Origin: an uncultured Thermoanaerobaculia bacterium
Lineage (GTDB): Bacteria; Acidobacteriota; Thermoanaerobaculia; Thermoanaerobaculales; Sulfomarinibacteraceae
Direction of reading: 5' to 3'
Length of the DNA: 64,000 bases
NCBI GenBank assembly: GCA_964440565.1
Contig: CAYTTB010000006.1
Span: 3,199 to 67,198 of the forward strand
Numbering within the stretch: position 1 is the stretch's first letter; the number at the start of each line of letters is the position of its first letter. The position numbers were made by a program, and so were the translations under genes. The notes beneath the pieces are model-generated. The model searched no databases. It was not told the DNA's origin and saw only the letters and a list, made by a program, of their open reading frames with translations. Below are positions 30,039-60,039 of this stretch, piece after piece.

Positions 30039-30054
30039 TGGCACGGGCCTTGCG
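30039..30054 (+). promoter_or_regulatory. sigma-54 (-24/-12) promoter for the pentaheme small cytochrome
   Basis: TGGCACGGGCCTTGCG versus consensus TGGCACG-N4-TTGCW, with one mismatch at the last base. It lies 26 nt before ATG 30080, and GGAGG at 30069-30073 serves as the RBS. Confidence 0.7.
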
Positions 30055-30079
30055 TGGCCGTGCACGCCGGAGGCGTAAC

Positions 30080-31967: not shown

Positions 31968-32034
31968 GGACGCCCTCCACGATGGGCGAGAATCCGCACG
32001 CCGGGCGCGCGACGCCCACCGTGAGGTTCCTTCA

Positions 32035-32050
32035 AGCAGGCACCGTGCCA
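32035..32050 (-). promoter_or_regulatory. candidate sigma-54 (-24/-12) promoter for the HD-GYP gene
   Basis: The minus strand reads TGGCACGGTGCCTGCT (TGGCACG-N4-CTGCT). It lies 8 nt downstream of the radical SAM stop and about 69 nt upstream of the TTG start at 31967. Confidence 0.5.
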
Positions 32051-32057
32051 GCCCGGG

Positions 32058-42013: not shown

Positions 42014-42015
42014 GG

Positions 42016-44619: not shown

Positions 44620-44645
44620 CGGCAGGCCTCCCCCCTCCCGGTCCG

Positions 44646-44661
44646 TGCAACCAGGATGCCA
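44646..44661 (-). promoter_or_regulatory. sigma-54 (-24/-12) promoter of the 12.6-kb minus-strand cytochrome operon
   Basis: The minus strand reads TGGCATCCTGGTTGCA (TGGCAT-N5-TTGCA). It is followed by CGGACCGGGAGGGGGGAGGCCTGCCG and ATG 44619, so the promoter, RBS and start codon are all in register. Confidence 0.75.
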
Positions 44662-44721: not shown

Positions 44722-46191
44722 GTGGAGAGAAGCCAACCCAGCACCGGCCGCGCATGGCGGCTTCCGTGGCCGCCGCGGACCGTGTTCGTCGTGATCCCCC
44801 TCCACCTGGTGGCGTTCCTGTTGCTCTACCTCGGCGTGGTCCAGCTCGCGCTGAACCAGGTGACGGTGGCCCACGAGCAGGACATCAAGGTGATGATCCG
44901 GACGGTGGTCGAGGAGCTCCACCCCGCCATGGTGTGCGGCGACGCAGAGAAGGTCCGTGAGCGGCTCGCCCAGTACGTCGCGGCGCACCGGCTGCTGGCT
45001 CTGGAGCTGTACGACCGCCGGGGGCGCCCCCTGGGGCCCACGGCGCGGCAGGACCCCGAGGTGCGGGCGTTCCTCATGGCTCCGGAGCACGAGTCGTACC
45101 GGGTGATCCGCGCCGCGGGCTCGTCGGTGCAGCTCGCCCTGATGCGGATCACGGCGGAGGAGCGGTGCGCGCCCTGCCACACCCCCGGCGAGCCGCTCGG
45201 GGTGGCCTCCGTCGCCCGCGACCTGCGACACGAGCTCGCCGAGACGAAGCGCCGCCTCCGGGTGCACGCGGGGCTCCTCACCGGCGGCTGGATCCTCCTC
45301 GTGGGTCTCCTGAACCTCGTGCTGTCGCGGGCCGCCCGGCGGACCGTGCGGTCGCTCGCCGCCGGCGGCGAGGATGCCAGGCCCTCGCTGGCCATGGACC
45401 CCGTGGCCCTGGAACTCTACCGCTCGCTGCGCGCTACGCTCCGGGCCCGGCGCGAGGAGCGGCGGCGGATGGACGACCACCTCCAGCGCACCGACCGTCT
45501 CGCCACCGTCGGCACCATCGCCGCCGGGATCGCGCACGAGATCAAGAACCCGCTGGCCGGCGTCCAGGGGGCGCTCGAGCTGCTCGTGGAGGAGTGCCAG
45601 GACCACGACCGGCGCGACCTGTTCGAGCGAATGCTGGAGGAGATCCGGCGGGTACAGCGGACCGTGCAGTCGTTGCTCGCCTTCGCGCGGCCCCGGCCCG
45701 TCCAGCCCCGCGTGGCGGACCTCGGCGCCCTGCTGGCCGACGTCGCCGCCCTGCTCGAGCCCGCCTGCCGGCGGCAGGGGATCGAGCTCCGGACCCGCGT
45801 CGCGGCGGGCACCGGAAGCTTCGTGCTGGATCCCGAGCAGATCCGGCAGGTGCTGGTCAACCTGGTCACCAACGCGATGGAGGCCACCGGCCGCGGTGGC
45901 ACCGTCGAGCTGTCGGCGGCGCCGCTCCCGGAAGGTGACGGGGTCGTGCTGGCGGTGCAGGACGACGGCCCGGGAGTCGCCCCGGAGGTGGCCGGACGGC
46001 TGTTCGAGCCGTTCGTGACGACGAAGCTGCACGGCACGGGGCTCGGTCTCGCCGTGGCGCAGCGGATCGTGGAGGAGCACGGGGGCGAGATTCAGGTGGA
46101 GAGCACGCCGGGCCGGACCATCTTCCACATCGTCCTGCCGGCCCGGAGGGGAGGGGAAACGGATGCCGCTGATCCTGATCGTCGAGGATGA
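44722..46191 (+). CDS. sensor histidine kinase (NtrB-like) with a CXXCH heme-c motif in the extracytoplasmic sensor domain
   Basis: In the frame of ORF 41998..46191. TM1 is VFVVIPLHLVAFLLLYLGVV. The ~130-aa loop contains ERCAPCH (45166..45180). TM2 is LLTGGWILLVGLLNLVL. H-box GIAHEIKNPL, N-box VLVNLVTNAME, G-boxes DDGPGV and GTGLGL. Start is uncertain (GTG 44722 after GGAGGGGG; alternatives ATG 44656 and GTG 44782). Confidence 0.85.
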   Translation: MERSQPSTGRAWRLPWPPRTVFVVIPLHLVAFLLLYLGVVQLALNQVTVAHEQDIKVMIRTVVEELHPAMVCGDAEKVRERLAQYVAAHRLLALELYDRRGRPLGPTARQDPEVRAFLMAPEHESYRVIRAAGSSVQLALMRITAEERCAPCHTPGEPLGVASVARDLRHELAETKRRLRVHAGLLTGGWILLVGLLNLVLSRAARRTVRSLAAGGEDARPSLAMDPVALELYRSLRATLRARREERRRMDDHLQRTDRLATVGTIAAGIAHEIKNPLAGVQGALELLVEECQDHDRRDLFERMLEEIRRVQRTVQSLLAFARPRPVQPRVADLGALLADVAALLEPACRRQGIELRTRVAAGTGSFVLDPEQIRQVLVNLVTNAMEATGRGGTVELSAAPLPEGDGVVLAVQDDGPGVAPEVAGRLFEPFVTTKLHGTGLGLAVAQRIVEEHGGEIQVESTPGRTIFHIVLPARRGGETDAADPDRRG

Positions 46192-47524
46192 GGACCTGCT
46201 GCGCTGGTCGCTCCAGCGGCGGCTCGAGAAGGCGGGGCACGAGGTCCACCTCGCGGCGGACCTCGCCGAGGCCGAACGCCACCTGGAGCAGCACCAGCCC
46301 GACCTCCTCCTCCTCGACCTCGCCCTCCCCGACGGTCACGGGCTCGACTTCTTCGAGCGCAACCGGGAGAAGCTGGCGCCCACCGTGGTGATCGTCATGA
46401 CCGCCGTCGGCGAGGTCGAGGACGCGGTCCGGGCGATGAAGCTGGGCGCGCTCGACTTCCTCACCAAGCCCGTGGACCACGACGACCTTCTCGACCTCGT
46501 GCACCGGTCGCTCGAGCGCCGCCAGGAGCAGCTCGACGCGGAGGCGGCGCGGCGCGACCGGCAGCTCCTGATCAGCTCCGACATCGTGGCCCACTCCGAG
46601 GCGTTCCGGCGCACGCTGGCCATCGCGTGCGAGGTGGCCCGGTCGGAGATCGCCACGGTGCTGATCACCGGGGAGAGCGGGACCGGGAAGAACGTCGTGG
46701 CGAGGTACATGCACGCGGTGTCCTCGCGGGCCGAGCGTCCGCTCCTCGAGGTCAACTGTGCGACGCTGCCCGACCAGCTCGTGGAGAGCGAGCTGTTCGG
46801 TCACGAGCGCGGCGCGTTCACCGACGCCAAGACGCTCAAGCGGGGCACCCTGGAGCTCGCCGACGGCGGGACCGTGGTCCTCGACGAGATCGGGGAGCTG
46901 CGGCTGGACGTGCAGGCCAAGCTGCTCCAGTTCCTCGAGAACCGGAGGTTCCGCCGGGTCGGGGGCGTGCGCGAGATCCAGGTGGACACGCGGGTGTTCG
47001 CCCTCACCAACCGCGACCTCACGGCGATGGTGGCCTCGGGCGAGTTCCGCAAGGATCTCTACTACCGGCTCTCGGTCTTCCCCATCGTGGTTCCGCCCCT
47101 TCGCGACCGGCGCGAGGACATCCTCCCGCTCGCGCGTCATTTCCTCCACACCCTCCAGCCGAAGGTGGGACGGCGCTTCGACGGCTTCAGCCGCGAGGCG
47201 GAGAACCGCCTCCTCGCCCACGACTGGCCGGGCAACGTCCGGGAGCTCCGCAACGTCGTGGAGCGGGCCGTGATCCTCGCGCAGGGCCCCACGGTGGGCC
47301 CCGAGTCGCTGGTGCTCGACGTCCGGATGGCGGGCTCCGCGGTGGACGAGTCGTCCGCGGTCCGCGGGATCATCCCCCTGGCCGAGGCGGAGCGCCAGCT
47401 GGTGGAGCGCGCGATGGAGGCCGCCGGAGGCAACCAGACGCGGGCCGCGGAGCTGCTCGGCATCACGCGCGACCAGCTCCGCTACCGGCTCCAGAAGCTC
47501 GGGCTGCTTCCCCGCCGCAAGTGA
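46163..47524 (+). CDS. sigma-54-dependent response regulator (NtrC family bacterial enhancer-binding protein)
   Basis: REC domain (LIVEDE...DLLLLDLALPDG). AAA+ domain with GESGTGKNVVARYMH, the sigma-54 contact loop ESELFGHERGAFTDA and VRELRNVVERA. C-terminal Fis-type HTH RAAELLGITRDQLRYRLQKLG. Confidence 0.92.
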   Translation: MPLILIVEDEDLLRWSLQRRLEKAGHEVHLAADLAEAERHLEQHQPDLLLLDLALPDGHGLDFFERNREKLAPTVVIVMTAVGEVEDAVRAMKLGALDFLTKPVDHDDLLDLVHRSLERRQEQLDAEAARRDRQLLISSDIVAHSEAFRRTLAIACEVARSEIATVLITGESGTGKNVVARYMHAVSSRAERPLLEVNCATLPDQLVESELFGHERGAFTDAKTLKRGTLELADGGTVVLDEIGELRLDVQAKLLQFLENRRFRRVGGVREIQVDTRVFALTNRDLTAMVASGEFRKDLYYRLSVFPIVVPPLRDRREDILPLARHFLHTLQPKVGRRFDGFSREAENRLLAHDWPGNVRELRNVVERAVILAQGPTVGPESLVLDVRMAGSAVDESSAVRGIIPLAEAERQLVERAMEAAGGNQTRAAELLGITRDQLRYRLQKLGLLPRRK

Positions 47525-47526: not shown

Positions 47527-47542
47527 CGGCACGCAACTTGCA
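47527..47542 (+). promoter_or_regulatory. sigma-54 (-24/-12) promoter of the pseudo-receiver / 21-heme cytochrome / NHL operon
   Basis: CGGCACGCAACTTGCA matches TGGCACG-N4-TTGCA at every position but the first. It lies 3 nt after the regulator stop and 22 nt before GTG 47564, which has GAAGGAG as its RBS. Confidence 0.65.
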
Positions 47543-47563: not shown

Positions 47564-47983
47564 GTGACGCGGATGCGGCTGATGCTGATGGAGGCGTCGC
47601 CAGTCACCGGCTGGCTGATCCGCCGGCTTCTCCCGCCGGACGTGGAGCTGGTGCAGGTCTCGGATCCCGAGGAGGCCGAGAGGGTGCTGCGCGAGGAGCC
47701 CCTCGACGGCGCCGTCTTCGGGCTCACCACGGCGAGCCTCCCGTGGTCGCGGCTGCGCGACCTGTGCGAGCGCCGGGTCCCCCGGATCCCGCACATGTGG
47801 TATTACTCCCTGTGCGAGGTCCCGGGCGACGGCGAGCTCTCGCCGGAGGCCGCGCCCGAGCTTCCTCCGGTTCTCCTCGAGGAGCTCGAGGAGCGGCTCG
47901 CACGGTTCCTTGCCCGGATCGGGGCGGGCCGCACGGAGCGTCCGGTGCGCGCCAACCCCGGGGAACGGAGGGTACGAGAGTGA
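47564..47983 (+). CDS. small cytoplasmic protein, possibly a degenerate receiver (pseudo-REC) domain
   Basis: 139 aa with very high GC3 throughout. Its RBS sits directly after a sigma-54 promoter. The RLMLMEASPV...VELVQVSDPEEAERVLREEPLDGAVFGL pattern resembles REC beta1-alpha1-beta2-alpha2-beta3, but with Gly where the phospho-acceptor Asp is expected (by-eye alignment). Confidence 0.5.
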   Translation: MTRMRLMLMEASPVTGWLIRRLLPPDVELVQVSDPEEAERVLREEPLDGAVFGLTTASLPWSRLRDLCERRVPRIPHMWYYSLCEVPGDGELSPEAAPELPPVLLEELEERLARFLARIGAGRTERPVRANPGERRVRE

Positions 47984-49689
47984 GGCGTGCGATGCTGCTG
48001 CTGGCGCTGGCCCCGGCCGTGGCGATGGCGGCGCGACACCCGCGGCTGGTCTCGGTGGAGAACACCCGCTGCACCACCTGCCATGCGGAGAAGACGCGCG
48101 GCACGACCGTGCATCCACCCGCGGCCGAGGACTGCACCACGTGCCATGAGATGACCATCGCCCCCTCCGGCACCACCGTGGCGCTGGCCGAGGAGGAGCC
48201 GGCGCTGTGCGTGGGCTGCCACGACGACAAGGCCGCCGCCGCGGAAGGCGAGCTGCCCTCCCCCCACGCCCCGGTCACGGACTCCTGCCTCGACTGCCAC
48301 GACCCGCACGCCACCGACACTCCACATCTCATCACCGCCGACTCGGTACCCGAGCTGTGCACCGGCTGCCACGATCCCGGCGACCTCGAGGGTCCGCACG
48401 GAGGCGTCCTGCCGAGGAACGCCCGGTGCACCGCCTGCCACCTGCCGCACGGCGGACCCAACCCGAAGCTGCTCCGCGCCGCCGGTCAGCACCCGCCGTT
48501 CGCGGAGGGCTCGTGCGACGCGTGCCACCGCAAGCCGCTCGGCCCGCGGATGCGGCTGCGCGGCCGGATCGGCCGGATCTGCTCCTCCTGCCACGGCGAC
48601 CTCACCGAGGGGAGCACGGTCACCCACCCGGCACTGGACCGGCGGCGCAATCGGCGCCAGTGCGTGGCCTGCCACGACCCTCACATGAGCGACGTGGAGC
48701 CGCTGCTGCGCGCCGAGGGACCGGCTCTCTGCGCGAGCTGTCACCCCGGTGAGGCGAAGGCGGCGACGGGGGACGGCGGTCACGCGCCCGCCGCCGAGGC
48801 GTGCACCACGTGCCACCAGCCGCACGCCGCGGCGCGCCGGTACCTCCTCGACGACGCGCCGCCCGAGCTGTGCCTGGGCTGCCACGACGCCGACGACCTG
48901 CGCGCGCCCCATCTCGGGGCCGATCCGGAGTCGCTCACGTGCACCGACTGCCACACCCCGCACGGCTCCGACAACCCGAAGCTCCTCGCCGCGAACCTCC
49001 ACCCTCCGCTGCTCGACGGGTGCGACACCTGCCACGAGGGGGCGTACGACCGTCTCGAGGCCGACGGCGGCTCCGAGCTGTGCCTGGCCTGCCACGACGA
49101 CATCGGCGAGGCGGCGGCGGCGGCCAAGGTCCCGCACCCGGCGATGGAGCTGGCACGGTGCGCCGACTGCCACAACCCGCACGCCTCGCCGCAGGAGCAC
49201 CTGGTGAAGGAGCCCGCGGGTGGCGAATGCCTCGCCTGTCACGACGACATGGGGCCCCGGGAGGGGGAGACCGCGCACGGGGTCATCACGCTGATCGGCT
49301 GCCGCGCATGTCACGAGCCCCACGGCGGACAGCGGCCCAGGCTGCTCCGGGCGGAGGGCGACGCCCTGTGCCTCGCCTGCCACGACGCGAGCCACGCCCC
49401 GGCGCGCGGCAGCTCGCAGCCGGTCACCGTGCTGGGGCGGTTCGAGGTACCGGCGCACGCCGCGCGGCGGATGGCGGTGGTCGAGCTCACCGACGGGAAG
49501 GGGCACCCCGTCAGCGGCCACCGCGCCGTGGGTCCACCCACCCGGCAGGAGGTGGAGCGGGCCGAGACGACCTTCACCGGCACGCTGGGCTGCCTCACCT
49601 GCCACGACCCGCACCGGGGACGGTACAGGCTGCTGCGCTGGGACGCGGAGTCCCCGTTCGCGGCGTGCTCCCACTGCCACCCGAAGTGA
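47980..49689 (+). CDS. 21-heme c-type cytochrome (modular, c7/doubled-CXXCH-like repeats)
   Basis: 569 aa from GTG 47980, which lies 7 nt after GGAGGG and overlaps the upstream stop. Signal VRRAMLLLALAPAVAMA. 21 CXXCH motifs counted, arranged in repeating H-P-P...C..CH / C..CHD / C..CH.PHG..NPKLL units. Confidence 0.9.
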   Translation: MRRAMLLLALAPAVAMAARHPRLVSVENTRCTTCHAEKTRGTTVHPPAAEDCTTCHEMTIAPSGTTVALAEEEPALCVGCHDDKAAAAEGELPSPHAPVTDSCLDCHDPHATDTPHLITADSVPELCTGCHDPGDLEGPHGGVLPRNARCTACHLPHGGPNPKLLRAAGQHPPFAEGSCDACHRKPLGPRMRLRGRIGRICSSCHGDLTEGSTVTHPALDRRRNRRQCVACHDPHMSDVEPLLRAEGPALCASCHPGEAKAATGDGGHAPAAEACTTCHQPHAAARRYLLDDAPPELCLGCHDADDLRAPHLGADPESLTCTDCHTPHGSDNPKLLAANLHPPLLDGCDTCHEGAYDRLEADGGSELCLACHDDIGEAAAAAKVPHPAMELARCADCHNPHASPQEHLVKEPAGGECLACHDDMGPREGETAHGVITLIGCRACHEPHGGQRPRLLRAEGDALCLACHDASHAPARGSSQPVTVLGRFEVPAHAARRMAVVELTDGKGHPVSGHRAVGPPTRQEVERAETTFTGTLGCLTCHDPHRGRYRLLRWDAESPFAACSHCHPK

Positions 49690-49705: not shown

Positions 49706-50746
49706 ATGCGACATCTGACCTGGCGTGTCCTCGCCGCAGCCCTCACGCTCTGGCTCGCCGGCTGCGCCTCCACCGGCCGGCGCCCCGTCCAGGACCCGTA
49801 CGCCGAGTACGTCTGGCCGCCGCCCCCCGACCCGCCCCGGATCCGCCTCGAGACGATCCTCACGGGCCGCGCCGACGTCGAGGCCGAGTCGGGATGGCGG
49901 AAGGCGCTGATCGGGGCCGGCCCGAAGAACCCGTACGACCGGCTCCGCAAGCCGTTCGGCGTGGCGTTCGACGGTCAGGGCCGGATCCTCGTCACCGACA
50001 CCGCGCTCCACGCGCTGGTGCGGTTCGACCGGGAGGGCCACCGCTACGACGTGTTCGGCACCCGCGGGCCCGCCCGGCTCCGCCTGCCGCTGGGTCTCGA
50101 CGTGGCCCCCGACGGGACCGTCTTCGTGGCCGACGCCGGGCGTGCCCAGGTGGTGGCCTACACCGCCGAGGGGAAGCTCGTCGCCCTCTACGGACAGCCC
50201 GGAGAGCTCGTGAACCCCACCGACGTGGCGGTGTCGCCCGACGGCACCCGCCTGTACGTCGCGGATTCCAAGGCGCACCGGATCGTCGTCTACGGCCGCG
50301 CCGACGGGCACCGGGAGGGGGCCTTCGGACGCCGCGGCGAGGGCCCGGGCGAGTTCGCCTTTCCCACCTCGCTCGCCTTCACCCCCGACGGCGACCTCCT
50401 GGTGGTGGACCAGCTCAACTCCAGGGTGCAGCTGCTCACCGACGAGGGCGAGTACCTCGACGAGTTCGGCGGGCTCGGGACCGGCTTCGGGAACTTCGTG
50501 CGCCCCAAGGACGTGGCCGTGGACCGGGAGGGGATCATCTACGTCACCGACGCGGCCTTCAACAACGTCCAGCTGTTCGACTCGGACTTCGAGCTGCTCA
50601 CCTTCGTCGGCGAGGGCGGCGCCGGGCCGGGGCAGTTCCGCATCGCCGCCGGCGTCGCGGCCCACGGCGACCGGTTCGCGGTGGTGGACCAGCTCAACCG
50701 GCGGGTGCAGGTCTTCCGCTACCTCCAGCCCCGCGGTGGGGAATAA
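49706..50746 (+). CDS. NHL-repeat beta-propeller lipoprotein
   Basis: Lipobox LTLWLAGC. Six NHL-like blades, for example FGVAFDGQGRILVTDTALHALVRFD, PLGLDVAPDGTVFVADAGRAQVVAY, PTDVAVSPDGTRLYVADSKAHRIVVY, GPGEFAFPTSLAFTPDGDLLVVDQLNSRVQLL, PKDVAVDREGIIYVTDAAFNNVQLF. Confidence 0.85.
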   Translation: MRHLTWRVLAAALTLWLAGCASTGRRPVQDPYAEYVWPPPPDPPRIRLETILTGRADVEAESGWRKALIGAGPKNPYDRLRKPFGVAFDGQGRILVTDTALHALVRFDREGHRYDVFGTRGPARLRLPLGLDVAPDGTVFVADAGRAQVVAYTAEGKLVALYGQPGELVNPTDVAVSPDGTRLYVADSKAHRIVVYGRADGHREGAFGRRGEGPGEFAFPTSLAFTPDGDLLVVDQLNSRVQLLTDEGEYLDEFGGLGTGFGNFVRPKDVAVDREGIIYVTDAAFNNVQLFDSDFELLTFVGEGGAGPGQFRIAAGVAAHGDRFAVVDQLNRRVQVFRYLQPRGGE

Positions 50747-50943: not shown

Positions 50944-50959
50944 TGGCACGCGCCTTGCA
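50944..50959 (+). promoter_or_regulatory. sigma-54 (-24/-12) promoter of the tetraheme cytochrome / PPIase / barrel / NHL / cytochrome operon
   Basis: TGGCACGCGCCTTGCA is a perfect match to TGGCACG-N4-TTGCA. It lies 59 nt before ATG 51018, with GGGAGGG as the RBS. Confidence 0.8.
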
Positions 50960-51017
50960 GCGGGAGGGGCGGCCCCCGGGAAGGGGCCGCGCGAAAAACC
51001 ACACGAGGGAGGGTCTG

Positions 51018-51665
51018 ATGAAGCGCATCGCAACTGTCACCCTGGCGGTCCTGGCCGCCGCGAGCCTGGCCGGGGCGGGCGTGGTCGGGTCCAAGCACGA
51101 CCTCAGCTCCACCGGCCCGGGGGCCACGACCAACGTGAACCGGGTGTGCGTGTTCTGCCACACCCCGCACCAGAGCGGGACCAACGTGGACCCGCTGTGG
51201 AACCACACCCTGTCCACCGTCACGAGCTACGGCGTGTACTCGTCGTCGACGCTGAACGCCACCCCCACCGACATCGGCGGCGGGAGCGCGGTGTCGAACC
51301 TCTGCATGTCGTGCCACGACGGCACGGTGGCGGTCCACTCGCTCTACAACGAGCCGAACGAGGTGGGCACCATCACCCTCACCTCGGGCGGCAACGTGGA
51401 CAGCAACGGGTTCATGACCGGCACCCCGAACCTGGGCACCGACCTCACCAACGACCACCCGATCAACTTCACCTACGACACCGCGCTGGCCAACGCCGAC
51501 GGCGAGCTGGTGGATCCGGCGACGAACAGCACGGTGGCCGGCCTGCTGTTCAGCGGCACGGTGCAGTGCGCGTCCTGCCACGACCCGCACGACGACACCA
51601 ACGCGCCGTTCCTCGTGATGAGCAACACCAACAGCGCTCTCTGCACCACCTGTCACATCAAGTGA
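51018..51665 (+). CDS. small tetraheme c-type cytochrome (paralog family)
   Basis: 215 aa. Signal MKRIATVTLAVLAAASLAGAG. CXXCH motifs: CVFCH, CMSCH, CASCH, CTTCH. Family motifs: GSKHDLS, VCVFCHTPH, PLWNH, LCMSCHDGT, GTDLTNDHPI, and the C-terminal NSALCTTCHIK. Confidence 0.88.
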   Translation: MKRIATVTLAVLAAASLAGAGVVGSKHDLSSTGPGATTNVNRVCVFCHTPHQSGTNVDPLWNHTLSTVTSYGVYSSSTLNATPTDIGGGSAVSNLCMSCHDGTVAVHSLYNEPNEVGTITLTSGGNVDSNGFMTGTPNLGTDLTNDHPINFTYDTALANADGELVDPATNSTVAGLLFSGTVQCASCHDPHDDTNAPFLVMSNTNSALCTTCHIK

Positions 51666-51699
51666 CCGTGGCCCGGGTCCACCGGGTTCTGCTACTGTC

Positions 51700-51726
51700 C
51701 GGGCGGGGCCGAGGCCCCGCCCGTTT
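51700..51726 (+). terminator. intrinsic-terminator-like hairpin (possible intra-operon attenuator) after the tetraheme gene
   Basis: GGGCGGGGCC-GA-GGCCCCGCCC followed by GTTT. It lies 35 nt after the stop at 51665 and 13 nt before ATG 51739. Confidence 0.45.
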
Positions 51727-51738
51727 CCTGGAGGTTCG

Positions 51739-52716
51739 ATGCGACGCGCCACCGTCCTGCTGCTCGCGCTCCCCCTCCTGCTCGCCGCCCGTCCCTCCGG
51801 CCAGGTGGTGGCCCGCGTGGGCGACCGGGTCATCACCCGCGCCCTCCTGGACGCCGCCGTGGACCAGGCCCTCAACTCCCGCTTCCGGCACGCGGCGCTG
51901 ACCCACGAGCGGCGCCTCCAGCTCGAGCGGGAGCAGCTCCGCACGCTGATCCGGAAGGAGCTGTCCGTGCTGGGCGGGCTCGACGCGGGGATGGAGCTGC
52001 CGCTTCAGGAGGCGGAACGGCGGCGGCGCGAGATCCGCGAGCGTCTCGGCCGGAAGCGGTACCGCGAGGGGCTCCGGGCCGCCGGGATGACCGTGCGCCA
52101 GCACCGCCGGGCCATCGCCGAGACCCTGCTCGCCGAGCAGGCCTACCGGCGGTTCGTGAAGGAACGGGCCGCGGTGACCGATGCCGACGTCCGCGCGGCG
52201 TACGACGCCGATCCCGGCCGCTGGCGCCGGCCCGAGGCCCGCCGGCTCCGCCACCTGGTGCTGGCGGTGCCCCCGGGCGCGGACGCCGCCACCGTCGCCC
52301 GCGTGGAGCGGGAGGCGCGGGAGCTCCTCCGCCGGATCCGGGCGGGGGAGCCGTTCGAGAAGCTCGCGGCCGAGCGCAGCGCCGACATGTACCGGATCCG
52401 CGGGGGCGACCTGGGCTGGGTCCACCGGGGCCGGCTGCTGCCGGAGCTCGAGGCGGCGGCGTGGAGCGCGACGGTGGGCGAGGTGGTGGGGCCGATCCGC
52501 ACGGACACCGGCTACCACCTGCTCCAGATCCTCGAGGTCCGGCCCGAGGCGCAGCTGAGCTTCGACGAGGCGGCACCCATGATCCGGAAGAAGCTGGAGG
52601 CCGAGCGGCTCGAGGCCGCCGAGTCGGCGTGGTTCGGCGAGCTGGCCCGCCGCCACCCGGTGGCGGTGCTCGTGCCCGAGCTGGCCGCCGCCTGGGACGG
52701 TGCGGGAGGTCGGTGA
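51739..52716 (+). CDS. exported parvulin-type peptidyl-prolyl cis-trans isomerase (SurA/PpiD-like chaperone)
   Basis: Signal MRRATVLLLALPLLLAA. N-terminal SurA-like helical region. PPIC domain RLRHLVLAVP...FEKLAAERSADMYRIRGGDLGWVHRGRLLPELEAAAWSATVGEVVGPIRTDTGYHLLQI. Confidence 0.85.
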   Translation: MRRATVLLLALPLLLAARPSGQVVARVGDRVITRALLDAAVDQALNSRFRHAALTHERRLQLEREQLRTLIRKELSVLGGLDAGMELPLQEAERRRREIRERLGRKRYREGLRAAGMTVRQHRRAIAETLLAEQAYRRFVKERAAVTDADVRAAYDADPGRWRRPEARRLRHLVLAVPPGADAATVARVEREARELLRRIRAGEPFEKLAAERSADMYRIRGGDLGWVHRGRLLPELEAAAWSATVGEVVGPIRTDTGYHLLQILEVRPEAQLSFDEAAPMIRKKLEAERLEAAESAWFGELARRHPVAVLVPELAAAWDGAGGR

Positions 52717-54487
52717 GGTGGGCGCCCGGCGAGCGCTCCTCCCCATCGTGACGCTGGCGCTGGCGGCCGCGGCCCCCGCCGCGGCGCAGCGGTACGGGCA
52801 GTGGTGGCTGGACGGCCGGATCGGAGCGGAGTACCGCTCGTACGAGAACCGCACCGACGGCGAGCTCGCCTCCCGTTACGACCAGCGGCGCTACCGCCTG
52901 AGCCTGGCCCTCAACGGCTACATCGTCCACCCGGCGCTGGCCTCGTTCCGCCTGGAGCTCGAGGGGATCCTCGACCGGTACCGGGACGGGTTCGGTCTGG
53001 ACAGCGACCGCACCGGGGCGCGGGCGGAGATCCGCCTCTTCCCCGAGGGGTGGTACCCGATCCGGCTGTGGGTGGGACGCACCGCGTACAGCTACGACAC
53101 CCGGGCGACGCCCCGGCAGGGAACGTTCCTGCCCGCCATCCCCGACACCCAGACCGTGGCCGGGGGCCGCCTGAGGTTCAGACGGGGCCCGCTGCGCGGC
53201 ACGCTCCTGGGTGTGGACCGCTCCACGCTGCGCCTGGTGGACGGACGCCGCCAGCGGGACGACCGCGAGTTCGTGGACTGGGCGCCGGGCAACGGCCCGC
53301 TCGGGCACCACTACCGGCTCGAGCACCGCGTGCTCCGCTACGCCGCCACCCCGTACACCCTCGACGACTGGACGTTCAACGGCGACGAGCACGGCGACAT
53401 CGGCCGGGGCTGGCGCTGGGACATGACCGCCGTCGGCGTCCGGCGCGGTTTCGAGGCCGCCGGGACCACCCTCACGACCACCGTGACCCGGCTGGCCAAC
53501 CGGTTCACGCGCCAGACGGCCCACCGCGGCCTGCTCACCCTCGGCTACACCGCCGGCTGGACCTCCTCGGACGCGATCACGAGCTCCAGCCACCTGGTGG
53601 AGGCCCGCTGGGAGCGCGACCTGGGGAAGGGAGTCCGCGCCGGTCCGTTCGCCGCCCTGGCGTACAGCACCGGCGGCGGCAGGTCCTCGAGCAGCCAGCG
53701 CCTGGGAGGGTACCTCACCTGGTCCGGCGCGGCGGGTCCCCTCGACAGCGTGGTCTCCGCCCAGGTGGCGGCGGGACGGTTCGCGCCGCCCGAAGGGCCC
53801 GCGCGGACCTCCAGCTCGCTGGCCCTCGCGACGACCCTCGGCCACGGCACGGAGGAGACGCTGCGCAGCGAGCTGGAGCTCGGCTGGACGCACTCCACCG
53901 CCGACATCGCGGGACCGGAGGCCGCACTGCCCGATCTCGGCGCCGCCGTGATCGGCTCCGCCACCGCCGACAGCACGCGCGCCCGGCTGAGCCTCCGGCG
54001 CCGGTTCGGGAGAACCCGGGCCTACGCCTACGCGGAGCTCCGTCGGCGCGAGGGCCAGAGCCTGCTGCGGGTCGGCCGGTCCACCGTCGAGGGACGGACC
54101 TACTCCGCGCAGGTGGACGGCGGCCGCCTGACGCTCGCCGTCCTGCACACCGAGGTGGACTCCATCGCCGGCTCCCGTCAGCGGGTCGAGGCCGACTCGG
54201 TCTCGCTGGGGTTCCGTCCCTTCAGGGCGCTCTCGCTGCACGCCTCCTACCGCACCGACGTCCGCCATCTCGAGCTCGTCCCCGACGTGGACGGGGAGCA
54301 GCTGCAGGCCCAGCTCACCTTCCACCTCGGGATGCTGGACCTCCGGGCGGAGTTCTACGACAGCCGCGAGCGGCTCGAGGGGGACGGGGATCGCCGCAAC
54401 CGGGGCGTGGTGGTGATCCTCTCGCGCCGCTTCGCGACGCTCCTGCCCATCGTGACGGCGCCCGAGCGGCGGGGGGTGATCCGGTGA
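52700..54487 (+). CDS. putative outer-membrane beta-barrel protein (no family recognised)
   Basis: Signal ALLPIVTLALAAAAPAAAQ. The rest is dominated by alternating-polarity strands rich in R/Y/G/T (RYRLSLALNGYIV, ARAEIRLFPEG, RARLSLRRRFGRTRAYAYAELRR, QLQAQLTFHLGMLDLRAEFYD). A late strand, GVVVILSRRF, ends in Phe. Start is uncertain (52700 or GTG 52718). Confidence 0.55.
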   Translation: MREVGEVGARRALLPIVTLALAAAAPAAAQRYGQWWLDGRIGAEYRSYENRTDGELASRYDQRRYRLSLALNGYIVHPALASFRLELEGILDRYRDGFGLDSDRTGARAEIRLFPEGWYPIRLWVGRTAYSYDTRATPRQGTFLPAIPDTQTVAGGRLRFRRGPLRGTLLGVDRSTLRLVDGRRQRDDREFVDWAPGNGPLGHHYRLEHRVLRYAATPYTLDDWTFNGDEHGDIGRGWRWDMTAVGVRRGFEAAGTTLTTTVTRLANRFTRQTAHRGLLTLGYTAGWTSSDAITSSSHLVEARWERDLGKGVRAGPFAALAYSTGGGRSSSSQRLGGYLTWSGAAGPLDSVVSAQVAAGRFAPPEGPARTSSSLALATTLGHGTEETLRSELELGWTHSTADIAGPEAALPDLGAAVIGSATADSTRARLSLRRRFGRTRAYAYAELRRREGQSLLRVGRSTVEGRTYSAQVDGGRLTLAVLHTEVDSIAGSRQRVEADSVSLGFRPFRALSLHASYRTDVRHLELVPDVDGEQLQAQLTFHLGMLDLRAEFYDSRERLEGDGDRRNRGVVVILSRRFATLLPIVTAPERRGVIR

Positions 54488-55443
54488 GGCGGGCGCTCGT
54501 GACGATACTCGCGGCCGCTCTCGCCGCCTGCACCGCCACGGGAGGCTGGCGGCGCCCCGGCACCACCGTCACCGCGGGACCGGCCACCATCGCCGTGGAG
54601 CGTGTGTTCGCGGGCGGCGGCCGGCGCGGGGTGGTGGGCTGGCTCACGGGACGCCGGCCCGGTCCGGCGCTGGTACGTCCCTACGGGGTGGCGTGGGACG
54701 GCGACGATCTCCTGGTGACCGACCCCGGGGCCGGCCGCGTGGTCCGCATCGGGCCCGGGGGCCGGCTGCGGGGCGGGCCCCGCGGCGGACTCGCCTCGCC
54801 GGTGGGTGTCGCCGTGTGCACCGATGGGATCCTGGTCACGGACTCTCGGGCGGGGACCGTGGTCCGCCTCTCCCGGGGACTGCGGCCCGCCGCACGGCTC
54901 GCCGAGGGGCTCCTCCGCCCCACCGGCATCGCCTGCGTCGGCGGCGCGGTGGTGGTCGCCGAGACCGGCGCCCACCGCCTGGTGGTTCTGGATCCCGGCG
55001 GCGGCCGGCGGACCATCGGGCGCCGTGGGAGCGGACCGGGCGAGTTCAACTTCCCCACCGCGCTCGCCGCCGACGGCGACACCGTCTGGGTGGGTGATAC
55101 CCTCAACTTCCGCCTGCAGCGGATCCGGCTTGCCGACGGGGAGCCGCTCACGGTGTTCGGGCGCCTCGGCGATGCCCCGGGCGAGCTGCCCCGGGTGAAG
55201 GGGATCACCGTGGACCCCGCGGGCCGCCTGTGGGTGACGGAGGAGCGGCTGGACCAGGTGATCCTGTTCCGGAGAGACGGCACGCTGCTGGCCACCGTCG
55301 GCGGATCGGGCCAGGAGCCGGGCCGGTTCGCGTTCCCGGCGGGGATCGCCGCCCGGCCGGACGGCGCGGTGGCGGTGGCGGACTCGCTGAACCGGCGGGT
55401 GCAGGTGCTGCGCCTCGTCGTGGAGGGGGTGGGCCATGGCTGA
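54484..55443 (+). CDS. NHL-repeat beta-propeller lipoprotein
   Basis: In the frame of ORF 52801..55443 from GTG 54484 (GTGA overlap). Lipobox ILAAALAAC. NHL-like blades include PYGVAWDGDDLLVTDPGAGRVVRI, PVGVAVCTDGILVTDSRAGTVVRL, GPGEFNFPTALAADGDTVWVGDTLNFRLQRI, GRFAFPAGIAARPDGAVAVADSLNRRVQVL. Confidence 0.8.
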   Translation: MRRALVTILAAALAACTATGGWRRPGTTVTAGPATIAVERVFAGGGRRGVVGWLTGRRPGPALVRPYGVAWDGDDLLVTDPGAGRVVRIGPGGRLRGGPRGGLASPVGVAVCTDGILVTDSRAGTVVRLSRGLRPAARLAEGLLRPTGIACVGGAVVVAETGAHRLVVLDPGGGRRTIGRRGSGPGEFNFPTALAADGDTVWVGDTLNFRLQRIRLADGEPLTVFGRLGDAPGELPRVKGITVDPAGRLWVTEERLDQVILFRRDGTLLATVGGSGQEPGRFAFPAGIAARPDGAVAVADSLNRRVQVLRLVVEGVGHG

Positions 55444-56116
55444 CGCTCGAGCCCGATGGATCGGCGCCGGGGTCGCGCTGGCGCTCGCCGGCACCGCGCT
55501 GGCGCAGCAGGCCGGCGTCGCCGGCACGCTGCACAACCTCTCCGTGAGCGGACCGGGCGAGGTCAAGTCCCTCACCGAGACCCAGGTGTGCAAGTTCTGC
55601 CACATCCCGCACAGCGCCGTGGTGCCGCAGCCGTTGTGGGGGCACAGGCTCCCGGAGAACGTGCGCTACCGGACGGCCGAGCCGTGGCGTGGCCGCGGCC
55701 AGCGGGAGACGCTCCCGCAGCCGGACGGCGCCTCGCGCTTGTGCCTGTCCTGCCACGACGGGACGGTGGCGCTGGGCGACGTCGCCGGGGAGCCGCGTCC
55801 CATCCCGATGGCCGGCTCGCAGCGGCTGGAGCCGGGACGGCCCGGGTACATCGGGACCGACCTGAGCGGGTCGCACCCGATCTCCTTCCGGGTGACCGAC
55901 CAGGTGCCGCTCGCGCCCGAGCAGGACATGGGCGTCAAGCCGCTCGACGCCATCCGCTCCGATCCGGACGTCCGCCTCGACGCCGAGGGCAAGATGCAGT
56001 GCACCACCTGCCACGATCCGCATTCGGACGCCAACTACAGGCCCGGCGTGACCCCCCACTTCTGGGTCAAGCCCACCGTCACGGAGGTGTGCGCCACATG
56101 CCACGAGCTGCGCTGA
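55436..56116 (+). CDS. small tetraheme c-type cytochrome (divergent paralog of 51018..51665)
   Basis: 226 aa with a signal peptide. CXXCH motifs: CKFCH, CLSCH, CTTCH, CATCH. Family motifs are retained: GTLHNLS, VCKFCHIPH, PLWGH, LCLSCHDGT, GTDLSGSHPI. The ATG overlaps the upstream stop by 8 nt. Confidence 0.85.
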   Translation: MADARARWIGAGVALALAGTALAQQAGVAGTLHNLSVSGPGEVKSLTETQVCKFCHIPHSAVVPQPLWGHRLPENVRYRTAEPWRGRGQRETLPQPDGASRLCLSCHDGTVALGDVAGEPRPIPMAGSQRLEPGRPGYIGTDLSGSHPISFRVTDQVPLAPEQDMGVKPLDAIRSDPDVRLDAEGKMQCTTCHDPHSDANYRPGVTPHFWVKPTVTEVCATCHELR

Positions 56117-57204
56117 GCGCCGCCATCGTCCTCGCGGCGGCAGGCCTCGCCACCGCCGCGAGCCCCCACCTGGACCCGTCCCTGATGCTCGCGGGGTGCG
56201 CCTCGTGTCACGCGGGCCACGGCGCCTCCGGATCGCCGATGCTGCCGTCGGGACAGACCGAGCTGTGCCTGAGCTGCCACGGTTCGGAGAACGACGTGCA
56301 GCGACGGATCGCCGAGGGCGTGCTCGCCGCCGGGGCGGCGCCGCCCCTCCTCGACACCGCGCTGGCGCAGCCACACCGCCACCGTCTCGACGCGGCCGCC
56401 ACCTCGCGCTTCGAGACCCAGGCGGTGACCTGCACCTCCTGCCACGCTCCCCACCGCGGGCTGCCGCCGGCGAGCGACACGGGTCCCGGCCGGAGGAAGC
56501 TGTCGCCACTCGACCCCTCCCGGTTCGAGTTCCAGCTCTGCGAGGGATGCCACGGAGGGGCCGGTGCCGCCACCCAGGACCTGCTCGACATCTCGCGGCT
56601 GCTCAGCCCCGAGAACCGGTCGTTCCATCCCGTGGAGGCGCCCGCACCGGACCGCTCGCCGTCGGTCCGGCCCGAGCTCTCCGGGCAGTACATCAACTGC
56701 ACCGACTGCCACGGCAATGACGACCCGGCCGGGGCACGCGGGCCCCACGGCTCCAGCGTCGAGAAGCTGCTCGTGGCCTCGTACGTGCGGACCGACGGCA
56801 GCCCCGAGTCGGCCGACACCTACGCCCTGTGCTACCGCTGCCACAACCGCGCCGCGCTCCTCTCGGGGAGCGGCCCGTTTCCCGAGCACCGCACGCACGT
56901 GGTGGAGGAGCGCACCGCCTGCGCCACCTGCCACAACCCCCACGGCTCGGTGACCAACCGCGCCCTGATCCGGTTCGGCGAGGAGACCACCCTCGGAGGC
57001 GTGAAGCCCTCCTCCTCCGGGCGCCTCGAGTTCCTCTCCCCGGGCCAGGGCTCCGGGCTGTGCTACCTCACGTGCCACGGGGAGGATCACGATCCGAAGG
57101 GGTACGGCGCCGGCGCGGCCCTGATCGGGCGGACCGGGGAGCCGGTCCGGGTCCTCTCCACGCGGCCGCCCCGACGGCCGGTGGCACGGCCCCCGCGGCG
57201 GTAG
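56098..57204 (+). CDS. multiheme c-type cytochrome (7 CXXCH + 1 CX3CH), homologous to the C-terminal part of the giant cytochrome
   Basis: 368 aa from ATG 56098 in the frame of ORF 55456..57204. Signal MPRAALSAAIVLAAAGLATAA. Heme motifs: CASCH, CLSCH, CTSCH, CEGCH, CTDCH, CYRCH, CATCH and CYLTCH. It shares the NRSFHPV...C.DCH.NDD...GPHGS block with residues ~1337-1396 of the giant protein. Confidence 0.85.
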   Translation: MPRAALSAAIVLAAAGLATAASPHLDPSLMLAGCASCHAGHGASGSPMLPSGQTELCLSCHGSENDVQRRIAEGVLAAGAAPPLLDTALAQPHRHRLDAAATSRFETQAVTCTSCHAPHRGLPPASDTGPGRRKLSPLDPSRFEFQLCEGCHGGAGAATQDLLDISRLLSPENRSFHPVEAPAPDRSPSVRPELSGQYINCTDCHGNDDPAGARGPHGSSVEKLLVASYVRTDGSPESADTYALCYRCHNRAALLSGSGPFPEHRTHVVEERTACATCHNPHGSVTNRALIRFGEETTLGGVKPSSSGRLEFLSPGQGSGLCYLTCHGEDHDPKGYGAGAALIGRTGEPVRVLSTRPPRRPVARPPRR

Positions 57205-58094: not shown

Positions 58095-58817
58095 TCACCG
58101 CTCTCCCCGCGCTCCCGGGCCCGGCGCGGGCACCACCTCGAGCGGGGTGCGGCAGGGCGGCCCACCGGCGTGCCGGGCTCGCCAGCCGCCCTCGCCCAGG
58201 AGGGCGACGGTGGCGCTCACCGTGCCCGCAGCGGGTGCGTGGCGACAGGAGACGGGGTGCTCGTGGCGGGCGAGGAGGGCCACCAGCCGCTCCGTCCACG
58301 CGGCCGCCCCCTCGCCAGGGCGGGGCCTCCCGAGCTCGAGAAGCGCCTCCACCCTCGGATCGCCCTCGAACGCCGGGCGGTTGCCGAGGGCCAGTGTCAC
58401 GGTCTCGAGCTCGCGGACCTCGGGACGGGGCACGTTGGTCGCCACCACCAGCCGAGCCGGCGAGGCCACCACCACGTTCGCCGGCGCGTACCGCGCGAGC
58501 GGCTCGCGCCGGAGGCGGTCCGCGGCCGTCCCGGCAGTGGGCTCCGCGGCGAGGTCGAGAACGAGCAGGCCCCGCGAGCGCTGGCCCTCCCGGCGGCGCG
58601 CCCCGAGCCGCGCGTTGGTCACCGCCACCAGGAAGCCCGAGCCCGACAGCGCGAGCCAGCTCCCGCCGGCCTCGGGGTCGTGCCCGCCCCACACCTCGGG
58701 CGTCTCGCTCAGCCTGGCCCATCCGCCCACCGCCCGCGCGTGCAGCTCGTCGCGGGCCGCGGCCACGGCCAGCGCCACCCCGGGGAGCGGCCGCCGGTAG
58801 AGCAGCAGCGTGCACAC
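58095..58817 (-). CDS. NRDE/TANGO2-family protein
   Basis: Real start taken as GTG 58817, giving MCTLLLYRR (N-terminal Cys2, typical of the family) and AAARDE (NRDE-like motif). 240 aa. The upstream part of track ORF 58095..59168 is junk. Confidence 0.6.
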   Translation of the reverse strand: MCTLLLYRRPLPGVALAVAAARDELHARAVGGWARLSETPEVWGGHDPEAGGSWLALSGSGFLVAVTNARLGARRREGQRSRGLLVLDLAAEPTAGTAADRLRREPLARYAPANVVVASPARLVVATNVPRPEVRELETVTLALGNRPAFEGDPRVEALLELGRPRPGEGAAAWTERLVALLARHEHPVSCRHAPAAGTVSATVALLGEGGWRARHAGGPPCRTPLEVVPAPGPGARGER

Positions 58818-58953
58818 CGTGCCAGTGTACCCGCAGGTCGCACCCACGCCCGCCATGGCGCGGCCAGGATCCGTGCCGGCCAGCTTCTCCGGGGAGCCCG
58901 CGGCGGTTGCCTGGATCCCGGGCTCGTGCGAGGATACGCGCCGGAGGTCATCC

Positions 58954-60039
58954 GTGCGCCGATTCGCCGTGCTCGTCCTCGCCGTCCTCGTTCCCGCCTG
59001 CTCCCGCGGCCCCTCCCAGGAGCCCGCGCGCGCCGCCGGCGCCAGCGGGCAGGTCCCCCGGGTGGTCCAGCCCGACCCCAGGGAGGTCCACTTCTCGGAG
59101 CTGCACATGCTCACCGACGGCGGGGAGAATGCCGAGGCGTACTTCTCGTTCGACGGCTCGAAGCTCATCTTCCAGTCGACGCGGCCGCCGTTTGCCTGCG
59201 ATCAGATCTTCGTGATGGACGTGGACGGCTCCGGGCCGCCGCGGCTGGTCTCCACCGGGAAGGGACGCACCACCTGCGCCTACTTCTACCCCGACGGCGA
59301 GCACATCCTCTACTCCTCCACCCACCTCGCATCTCCGGACTGCCCCCCGCCGCCCGACCGGAGCCAGGGGTACGTCTGGGCGCTCTACCCGGGCTACGAC
59401 ATCTTCCGCGCCAACGCCGACGGCACCGGGATCGAGCGGCTCACCGACACGCCGGGGTACGACGCCGAGGCCACGATCTCGCCCAGGGGCGACCGGATCG
59501 TCTTCACCTCCATGCGCGACGGCGACCTCGACATCTACACCATGAACCTCGACGGTTCCGACGTGCGCCGCCTCACCCACGAGCTGGGGTACGACGGCGG
59601 GCCGTTCTTCTCGCCCGACGGCAGCAAGATCGTCTACCGCGCCTACCACCCGAGGACGCCCGAGGAGATCGAGGACTACCGGCGCCTGCTCGCGCAGGGC
59701 CTGATCCGGCCCACCACCCTCGAGATCTGGGTGATGAACGCCGACGGCTCCGGCAAGCACCAGGTGACCCACCTCGGCGCGGCCTCCTTCGCGCCGTTCT
59801 TCCACCCCTCGGGCGAGAAGATCATCTTCTCCTCCAACTACGGCGATCCCGAGGGGAGGGAGTTCGAGCTGTACCTGGTGAACCTGGACGGATCGGGGCT
59901 CGAGCGCGTCACCTACTCCCCGGAGTTCGACGGGTTCCCGATGTGGGCCCCGGACGGGAAGACCTTCGTCTTCTGCTCCAACCGGATGAACTCCCACCCG
60001 CACGAGACCAACGTGTTCGTCACCCGCTGGCGGGAGTAG
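58954..60039 (+). CDS. TolB-like WD40/PD40 beta-propeller lipoprotein
   Basis: GTG 58954 follows GGAGG. Lipobox-like AVLVPAC. PD40 repeats: YFSFDGSKLIFQS, YFYPDGEHILYSS, TISPRGDRIVFTSMRDGDLDIYTMNLDGS, FFSPDGSKIVYRA, FFHPSGEKIIFSSN, MWAPDGKTFVFCSNR. Confidence 0.8.
   Translation: MRRFAVLVLAVLVPACSRGPSQEPARAAGASGQVPRVVQPDPREVHFSELHMLTDGGENAEAYFSFDGSKLIFQSTRPPFACDQIFVMDVDGSGPPRLVSTGKGRTTCAYFYPDGEHILYSSTHLASPDCPPPPDRSQGYVWALYPGYDIFRANADGTGIERLTDTPGYDAEATISPRGDRIVFTSMRDGDLDIYTMNLDGSDVRRLTHELGYDGGPFFSPDGSKIVYRAYHPRTPEEIEDYRRLLAQGLIRPTTLEIWVMNADGSGKHQVTHLGAASFAPFFHPSGEKIIFSSNYGDPEGREFELYLVNLDGSGLERVTYSPEFDGFPMWAPDGKTFVFCSNRMNSHPHETNVFVTRWRE

Follow-up and report, generated by a model that had tools for sequence, protein, structure and literature searches.

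A probable OmcE/Uet-type extracellular electron transfer cluster with a split UetJ-type cytochrome in a Thermoanaerobaculia genome

Which system is encoded by the run of cytochrome, chaperone, beta-barrel and beta-propeller genes on a contig of an uncultured Thermoanaerobaculia bacterium (Acidobacteriota), and does it represent something new? The window analyzed here is the whole stretch of 64,000 nucleotides between positions 3,199 and 67,198 of contig CAYTTB010000006.1 (GenBank assembly GCA_964440565.1). Its G+C content is 71-79% over its whole length, and the identical sequence, with the same gene calls in each, is present in four independent metagenome assemblies (JGI 3300023440/3300023442 and SRR9849954/5). 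A first-pass annotation of positions 50944-57204 had proposed a single sigma-54-driven operon for an undescribed family of cytochrome filaments or conduits. The best explanation, to which we assign a probability of roughly 60%, is that this very GC-rich genome carries an OmcE/Uet-type cluster for extracellular electron transfer, in which a filament of the first tetrahaem cytochrome (tet1) would be wired to an outer-membrane conduit. The general part of the earlier proposal therefore stands, since a tetrahaem, a peptidyl-prolyl isomerase (PPIase), a barrel and propeller lipoproteins are all present, as expected for a cytochrome filament or electron transfer module. The claim of novelty does not: tet1 matches the solved OmcE filaments, and the cluster type has already been described twice, as omcE and as uet, and is not a new filament family. 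The features that mark this variant are a split UetJ, a 21-haem cytochrome replacing the c7 trihaems, the lack of a cupredoxin and control by sigma-54.

The tet1 gene (51018..51665, + strand) encodes a candidate nanowire subunit of the OmcE/UetA type, with 215 amino acids, a signal peptide and four CxxCH motifs. In a comparison with all PDB sequences it matched only two cytochromes, 7TFS_A (E 1.2e-37, residues 7-215) and 9YUQ_N (E 3.6e-33, residues 1-215). Entry 9YUQ is the OmcE bundle of Desulfuromonas soudanensis, and 7TFS_A is 98% identical to the Geobacter sulfurreducens protein at the omcE locus. The gene order of that locus is purHDE, ppcA, resB, ccsB, two cytochromes, NHL, omcE, a 752-residue protein and glycosyltransferases, and a locus of this layout was described for omcE by Petersen et al. 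(2025, bioRxiv 10.1101/2025.10.22.684050). The identity of tet1 is 41-45% to G. sulfurreducens OmcE and 42% to D. soudanensis OmcE, while the two experimentally solved OmcE filaments share 41% identity (Petersen et al. 2025). Eight Cys and eight His are invariant across tet1, the second tetrahaem of the cluster (tet2), the acidobacterial relatives and both solved OmcEs. Four of the haem-ligand His are located within CxxCH motifs; the other four (H27, H51, H147 and H191) lie outside them and are conserved at 95-100% in 84 stand-alone homologs. The motifs GSKHDLS, PLWNH, GTDL.NDHPI and ...CT.CH.K, reported earlier as unrecognised, are actually the conserved core of the OmcE family. Judged by its sequence, tet1 is an unambiguous full-length homolog of the OmcE nanowire subunit, a protein that polymerises with one haem ligated by a His of the neighbouring subunit (PMC9473688). 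The OmcE-like family is very large: at E<=1e-5 it comprises 4612 proteins, and at least 594 GTDB species genomes encode relatives. OmcE-like open reading frames (ORFs) with five CxxCH motifs also occur beside the four-haem ones in seven of the loci retrieved (L014, L020, L022, L023, L050, L064 and L065), and they probably correspond to the 5-haem 'OmcE-like' family mentioned by Petersen et al. (2025).

The last two genes of the segment first reported had been annotated as a second, divergent tetrahaem and a 7+1-haem cytochrome. Both are present, as tet2 (55436..56116, + strand; 226 amino acids, four CxxCH) and cyt8 (56098..57204, + strand; 368 amino acids, its own signal peptide, seven CxxCH plus CYLTCH), and comparison with related loci identifies them as the two halves of one UetJ-type undecahaem rather than as separate novelties. 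Like tet1, tet2 has only OmcE entries as PDB matches (7TFS_A, E 1.7e-18). Related loci most often show the architecture E4 - NHL - multihaem - barrel - NHL - E11, with E4 for a stand-alone OmcE-like tetrahaem and E11 for a protein of 11 haems. Fused ORFs of 10-12 haems align collinearly in 60 out of 60 cases, the N-terminal part to full-length tet2 (36-43% identity in the 16 alignments shown) and the C-terminal part to cyt8 (23-37%). A neighbour-joining tree was built from 156 OmcE-like domains. The 62 fused N-domains all belong to one clade, which also includes tet2 and its orthologs; tet1 and the OmcEs of Geobacter and D. soudanensis are placed outside it, with the stand-alone proteins. Both clades retain all eight ligands. 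These alignments identify tet2 and cyt8 as a split UetJ-type cytochrome of 11-12 haems whose N-terminal module is OmcE-like. The same split is found in three Acidobacteriota metagenome-assembled genomes (MAGs; L005-L007) and in locus L011, and in L005-L007 cyt8 also keeps its own signal peptide (MPR...AxQ/TPHMDPS). A frameshift artefact was considered and ruled out, because the four assemblies are identical and three diverged MAGs keep the split with the signal peptide.

The C-terminus of cyt8 (57085-57110) reads CYLTCHGEDH, and the corresponding motif CX3CH-G-x-D-H is present in 52 of the 60 fused UetJ-type proteins (L013-L084) and in all the split ones. Because this motif is conserved, the published 'undecahaems' probably bind twelve haems. 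The cyt8 protein also matches MtrA by sequence. The Geobacter omcE cluster is without a second OmcE-like module; such a domain was considered for the GSU0615/0616-like proteins of Geobacter and rejected, as only short paired-CXXCH repeats matched. Two Sulfuricella / Sulfurimicrobium MAGs (L039 and L071) carry 24-haem ORFs 5' of their NHL and UetJ-type genes; these ORFs are nearest to the tetrahaem by phmmer, but contain no full OmcE-like domain by hidden Markov model (HMM).

Between tet1 and tet2 lie the genes of the putative assembly and conduit proteins, all on the + strand. The first (51739..52716) encodes an exported parvulin PPIase, as the first-pass annotation had recognised. The protein is UetB-like and has the Pfam domains SurA_N_3 and Rotamase; it matches E. 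coli SurA with E 2.6e-24 over residues 22-272 and is a SurA-like chaperone. The second (52718..54487) encodes a UetC-like protein of 589 amino acids, or 595 from an alternative GTG at 52700, for which outer-membrane beta-barrel character had been proposed. It has no match in Pfam or NCBIfam, and an exhaustive search retrieved 160 relatives, against only 2 by word-indexed protein search. The beta-barrel prediction agreed with the proposal: an AlphaFold2 model based on 79 aligned relatives has a predicted local distance difference test (pLDDT) of 92 and a predicted template modelling score (pTM) of 0.83, and contains only a signal helix and, after it, 28 beta-strands. Using an iterated HMM on ORFs, a homolog of this barrel was found beside OmcE-like and NHL genes in about 60 of 80 retrieved loci. 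A leave-out HMM scored only 44 bits, which raised the worry of profile drift; an independent profile-profile comparison (hhalign) gave 99.3% with E 1.6e-20 over 561 columns, and therefore the relatedness of the barrels reflects homology and not drift. The third gene encodes NHL2 (54499..55443, alternative GTG start 54484), a beta-propeller lipoprotein with lipobox LAAC and a Pfam NHL match of 1.2e-21.

The cluster is larger than the segment first reported and starts about 6 kb 5' of it. An unbroken run of + strand genes extends from 44.7 to 57.2 kb, beginning with a sensor histidine kinase with a periplasmic sensor domain (44722..46191; Pfam HisKA, HATPase_c at 7e-27 and a sensor domain) and an NtrC-type response regulator, that is, a sigma-54 activator (46163..47524; Response_reg, Sigma54_activat at 2e-62 and HTH_8). 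They are followed by a second sigma-54 site and a protein of 136 amino acids with no assigned function (47573..47983), called as a gene in the four assemblies, which has no signal peptide and no Pfam match. Next is a periplasmic-type cytochrome of 565 amino acids with 21 CxxCH in MtrA/DmsE-like paired-CXXCH repeats (47992..49689). It matches Paired_CXXCH_1 with 2e-88 and the MtrA chain 6R2Q_A with E 4.5e-15, and reaches 195 bits for TIGR03508, the DmsE/MtrA family, where the cut-off is 192. The last upstream gene encodes NHL1 (49706..50746), a second beta-propeller lipoprotein (lipobox LAGC, Pfam NHL 1.7e-26). NHL1 and NHL2 are 32% and 34% identical, respectively, to the NHL protein beside G. 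sulfurreducens omcE. Signal peptides were found on all secreted products of the cluster and lipoboxes on both NHL proteins.

The gene order is conserved in relatives, as the initial proposal required. A synteny of eight genes is complete in L005-L007, where the orthologs are 47-57% (histidine kinase), 68-69% (activator), 40-44% (136-residue protein) and 62-69% (tet1) identical to the proteins of the window. The closest relatives of tet1, of the barrel and of the eight-gene synteny all come from Acidobacteriota/Thermoanaerobaculia MAGs.

Is this run of genes a single operon? From the PPIase gene on, the genes are translationally coupled, and neighbours abut or overlap, as had been noticed: the junctions, in nucleotides with overlaps as negative values, are +1 or -17 (PPIase/barrel), +11 or -4 (barrel/NHL2), -8 (NHL2/tet2) and -19 (tet2/cyt8). 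This part of the earlier claim holds, but the cluster begins further 5' and is not one simple operon, since tet1 is flanked by a promoter of its own and by a hairpin that resembles a terminator. The perfect sigma-54 promoter noted before tet1, TGGCACGCGCCTTGCA, is present at 50944..50959 (+ strand), 59 nucleotides 5' of the tet1 ATG. The window contains two exact copies of the consensus TGGCAC-N5-TTGC, where 0.05 would be expected by chance; the other copy, TGGCACGGGCCTTGC (30039-30053, + strand), lies between a TPR gene (28108-30258, - strand) and a GAF/HD-GYP-type gene (30777-32057, - strand). In L005-L007 a promoter of the tet1 type is found at -74 to -85, and the intergenic DNA is diverged except for TGGCACG-N4-TTGCA and the ribosome-binding site. 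A second sigma-54-type promoter, CGGCACGCAACTTGCA (47527..47542, + strand), has one mismatch to the consensus and is located directly 3' of the activator stop codon; at the equivalent position, right after the activator stop, L005-L007 have a perfect TGGCACGATCCTTGCT. The predicted promoter at 47527 serves the 136-residue protein, the 21-haem cytochrome and NHL1, and the predicted promoter at 50944 serves tet1. With its histidine kinase, NtrC-type activator and conserved sigma-54 promoters, the window gives a clear regulatory picture for this type of cluster. Activators 37-41% identical to this one, often accompanied by a histidine kinase, occur less than 10 kb from OmcE/Uet-type clusters in many phyla (L018, L020, L029, L045, L054, L062, L063, L067, L068, L079, L082 and L084). 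In those loci no sigma-54 consensus was found directly 5' of the matched tetrahaem or UetJ gene.

The hairpin listed by the first-pass annotation is located 3' of tet1 (51700..51726, + strand), and consists of a GC-rich 10-bp stem-loop (stem 51700-51723) plus TTT, resembling a terminator or attenuator. Every cluster examined has an equivalent, strong stem-loop after the OmcE-type gene (L005-L007, L011, L016, L027, L042, L052 and G. sulfurreducens). This hairpin takes the form of a canonical intrinsic terminator in the AT-richer genomes, G. sulfurreducens among them, and of a GC stem with a short run of T in the GC-rich Acidobacteriota. The G. sulfurreducens example lies between omcE and the barrel gene (L085, 10699-10745), and canonical terminators are likewise found in L011, L016, L027 and L042. 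A terminator between the subunit and barrel genes thus appears to be a conserved transcript architecture across phyla. We infer that tet1, with a promoter and hairpin of its own, is organised like a major structural subunit that is highly expressed, with transcripts reading through into the assembly genes.

How closely does the cluster resemble the two systems already described? The minimal omcE cluster consists of two multihaem cytochromes, two beta-propeller lipoproteins, OmcE and a large beta-barrel (Petersen et al. 2025), and this content is fully matched here by the 21-haem protein, tet2/cyt8, NHL1, NHL2, tet1 and the 28-strand barrel. The omcE clusters of Desulfuromonadia (the GSU0615-0619 region of G. 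sulfurreducens and D. soudanensis WTL; Wang et al. 2022) have the homologous tetrahaem subunit, at 41-45% identity. The Geobacter cluster also shares the local order of NHL lipoprotein, intergenic gap, subunit, terminator-like hairpin and a large barrel downstream, as well as multihaem cytochromes upstream and a ResB-type maturation gene nearby. It differs in having no PPIase between omcE and the barrel gene, no sigma-54 consensus 5' of omcE, and a glycosylation island downstream.

The uet cluster fits even better. In 'Ca. Tenderia electrophaga'/Tenderiales its order is UetA tetrahaem, UetB PPIase, UetC barrel (28 strands predicted), UetD/E/G c7 trihaems, UetF cupredoxin, UetH/I NHL and UetJ undecahaem, and it is also found in some Gallionella (bioRxiv 10.1101/2022.05.06.490989; PMC10734462). 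The uet cluster was reached by a search that had begun with PCC3 of Gallionellaceae as a possible comparison. As uet reference, and proxy for the Tenderia sequences, we used a Chromatiales MAG (L083) with the textbook layout, in which the haem counts are 4, 0, 0, 3, 3, 0, 3, 0, 0 and 11. Against the corresponding L083 proteins, tet1 matches the UetA-like one with E 6e-31 and the PPIase the UetB-like one with E 2e-10 (26% identity). The two NHL proteins are 34-39% identical to the UetH/I-like ones, with NHL1 at 39% to the UetI-like protein; tet2 is 34% identical to the N-terminal part of the UetJ-like protein, and cyt8 24% identical to its C-terminal part (E 1e-7). The order tet1, PPIase, 28-strand barrel is the same, followed by NHL2 and by tet2 plus cyt8 as the UetJ equivalent. 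In contrast with uet, the window has neither separate c7 trihaems (UetDEG) nor a cupredoxin gene (UetF) between the barrel and NHL2, and has instead, upstream, the 21-haem protein with its c7/paired-CXXCH repeats. One NHL gene stands 5' of the subunit, and in place of one UetJ gene there are two, whose products both carry a signal peptide. As the trihaem and cupredoxin genes are missing, the cluster is a uet-like variant and not a canonical uetA-J. No paper naming both Uet and OmcE was found in the literature searched.

Taken together, these comparisons suggest how the proposed system could work. The histidine kinase and activator would turn on transcription from the sigma-54 promoters. All the products would be exported via Sec, and the cytochromes matured by a system II machinery, for which there is a ResB-like gene upstream. 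The SurA-like chaperone might aid folding or insertion of the barrel, or hold the coil-rich cytochromes. Electrons would be passed across the periplasm by the 21-haem protein, and one multihaem rod, either cyt8 or the 21-haem protein, would fill the barrel the way MtrA fills MtrB, forming a haem wire across the outer membrane with the OmcE-like module tet2 at its outer end. Overproduced from its own promoter and terminator, tet1 would polymerise head-to-tail by His-haem ligation between subunits into an OmcE-like filament joined to the conduit, and the two NHL lipoproteins could be outer-membrane assembly scaffolds. Electrons might flow either way, to minerals or into the cell, as OmcE has been studied in metal and electrode reduction and Uet has been proposed for uptake.

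Several observations weigh against this reading. The AlphaFold2 model of apo tet1, from an alignment of 58 sequences, has a pLDDT of 53 and no Foldseek match, although such a poor model is expected for a coil protein organised by haem and is not evidence against homology. The eight conserved His suit a filament and a closed tet1 monomer equally well. Since tet2 and cyt8 are not lipoproteins, their location at the surface is an assumption. The 752-residue barrel adjacent to G. sulfurreducens omcE is not detectably homologous to the barrel of the window: it has no HMM match, and hhalign gave 72-78% in alignments limited to 77-133 C-terminal columns, and 36% when 500 columns were aligned. Similarity to the UetC-like barrel of L083 is weak as well. 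Finally, the hairpin of the window taken by itself is not significant against shuffled sequences (z -1.4), so the hairpin argument rests on conservation.

The main rival is a porin-cytochrome conduit without a filament. According to this explanation the barrel, tet2 plus cyt8 and the 21-haem protein form a wire of the Uet/Mtr/Pcc kind, while tet1 is a monomer or small oligomer, at the surface or in the periplasm, that docks on the OmcE-like module of UetJ without building filaments of micrometre length, perhaps for electron uptake, as has been suggested for Tenderia. Indeed, uet itself was proposed as an electron-uptake conduit at cathodes, with UetJ as the extracellular haem wire and polymerisation mentioned as a mere possibility (bioRxiv 10.1101/2022.05.06.490989). 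As in MtrCAB/Pcc (PDB 6R2Q), genes for multihaem rods resembling MtrA/DmsE accompany the gene for a large outer-membrane barrel: the 21-haem protein scores above the DmsE/MtrA cut-off, both multihaem proteins match MtrA, and the best TM-score of the barrel (0.43, at 7% sequence identity) is to MtrB (6R2Q_B). Moreover, OmcE-like tetrahaems are very common, as the family size given above indicates, and Petersen et al. (2025) caution that nanowire formation need not apply to every OmcE-like protein. The likeness to MtrCAB has its limits. The MtrB-type barrel has 26 strands and not 28, OmcE-type modules and NHL lipoproteins are present in the window cluster, and the cluster has no lipoprotein decahaem of the MtrC/OmcA type, TIGR03507 scoring far below its cut-off. 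Three points speak for a filament. First, tet1 is as near to each solved OmcE filament (42-45%) as those are to each other. Second, its place in the tree is among the stand-alone, filament-forming type, apart from the UetJ modules. Third, a strong promoter and a terminator-like hairpin of its own form the layout of a major subunit, one common to Geobacter omcE. We therefore consider a conduit without a filament the less likely explanation, although a serious one.

A further alternative is that the barrel is a secretion pore resembling an usher, which would export unfolded or partly folded tet1 with help from the SurA-like chaperone, as in chaperone-usher pili, while the multihaem cytochromes stay in the periplasm. 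When the barrel model was compared with the PDB by Foldseek, only generic large outer-membrane barrels were recovered, with the ushers FimD and PapC among the lowest E-values together with TonB-dependent transporters (about 1e-7). A gene for a periplasmic chaperone stands directly between the subunit and barrel genes, and a chaperone-usher-like model is discussed by Petersen et al. (2025). However, the TM-scores to ushers are low (0.23-0.30), the 589 residues include no plug and no usher N- or C-terminal domains, and a PPIase is present in only 19 of 82 related loci. Since c-type cytochromes acquire their fold in the periplasm, around haem that is bound covalently, the export of unfolded tet1 is unlikely. 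For these reasons an usher-like pore seems improbable.

The reading originally offered, an osc-like secretion and assembly machine for an undescribed filament family unrelated to OmcS, OmcE or OmcZ, finds some basis in a barrel without a Pfam or NCBIfam family and in a PPIase, channel-like barrel and beta-propeller that parallel the roles of OscH, OscEFG and OscD, but is highly improbable given an unambiguous OmcE homolog as subunit, an architecture already known as omcE and uet, and the lack of an OmcS-like hexahaem. In the osc cluster of G. sulfurreducens, as Shen et al. (2025, Cell Chem Biol) are summarised in PMC13194489, the OmcS gene lies next to genes for the PPIase OscH, the channel-like OscEFG and OscD, which affects morphology. 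The functional logic of a filament cytochrome gene with a PPIase, a channel-like protein and a propeller is the same, but the subunit in the window is of the OmcE type (four haems) and not of the OmcS type (six haems). No OmcS-like hexahaem was found among the proteins of the window cluster, either by CxxCH counts or in the PDB matches of tet1 and tet2. The resemblance to osc is an analogy only. Another lead, based on published descriptions, is offered by the occ cluster of 'Ca. Dechloromonas occultata' and by DFE_0448-0451/0461-0465 of Desulfovibrio ferrophilus, which comprise the extracellular undecahaem OccP (922 amino acids), a PPIase and NHL-repeat proteins.

If the filament reading is correct, what holds the filament at the cell? 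Petersen et al. (2025) report no tip or stopper candidate encoded in the omcE operons of Desulfuromonadia, in agreement with the absence of a second OmcE-like module from the Geobacter cluster. We tentatively propose that the OmcE-like module of the UetJ-type cytochrome, here the separate tet2, might supply what has so far been missing from OmcE-type nanowires, a base (nucleator or anchor) or a cap; this is possible, but we do not regard it as the likelier outcome. Since tet2 keeps the eight haem ligands of the filament subunit, it could accept or donate an inter-subunit His-haem bond. Such a bond would link the filament to the 8-haem rod and the 28-strand barrel both physically and electrically. 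The module is present in most clusters outside Desulfuromonadia, and a stand-alone subunit, a UetJ-type protein and a barrel occur together in 37 of 56 long loci. If the proposal is right, the 'uet' and 'omcE' clusters would be unified as one system. The natural split between tet2 and cyt8 would also make the adaptor experimentally separable, and the question of how filaments are anchored and started would become approachable.

The distribution of the related loci, taken from record titles, is broad. It covers Verrucomicrobiota, Planctomycetota, Nitrospirota, Alpha-, Beta- and Gammaproteobacteria and Desulfobacterota/Thermodesulfobacteriota, and further Calditrichota, Ignavibacteria/Melioribacteraceae, Gemmatimonadales, Zixiibacteriota, Binatia, Poribacteria and Schekmanbacteria. 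Petersen et al. (2025) list five phyla with omcE clusters, Acidobacteriota not among them, so that an OmcE/Uet-type cluster in Acidobacteriota lies outside those reported so far. The related loci place the module in over a dozen groups at phylum level, and bacteria in general, not Geobacter alone, may therefore use OmcE-type wiring. Cultured carriers of related clusters include Planctomycetales bacterium ZRK34 (L030), Deferribacter abyssi (L029) and Geothrix fermentans DSM 14018 (L010). Geothrix fermentans has OmcE-like, NHL and cyt8-like genes; no homolog of the barrel was detected in its locus.

On the - strand, next to the histidine kinase gene, a divergent operon (35260-44661) resembles a second extracellular electron transfer module. 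Its products are a secreted Ig-like protein of 894 amino acids (HYDIN/ASH/Big_9), a 5-haem cytochrome of 432 amino acids, a 13-haem cytochrome of 1529 amino acids with fn3-like matches, and a ResB-like maturation protein. Its promoter would be the sigma-54-like site TGGCATCCTGGTTGCA (44661-44646), 27 nucleotides 5' of the ATG at 44619. As such a site heads the adjoining operon, the histidine kinase and activator may control three promoters and an island of about 22 kb. On the other side, just 3' of the HAD hydrolase gene that ends the cluster, a + strand gene (58810-60039) encodes a PD40 (TolB-like) beta-propeller of 409 amino acids with a signal peptide.

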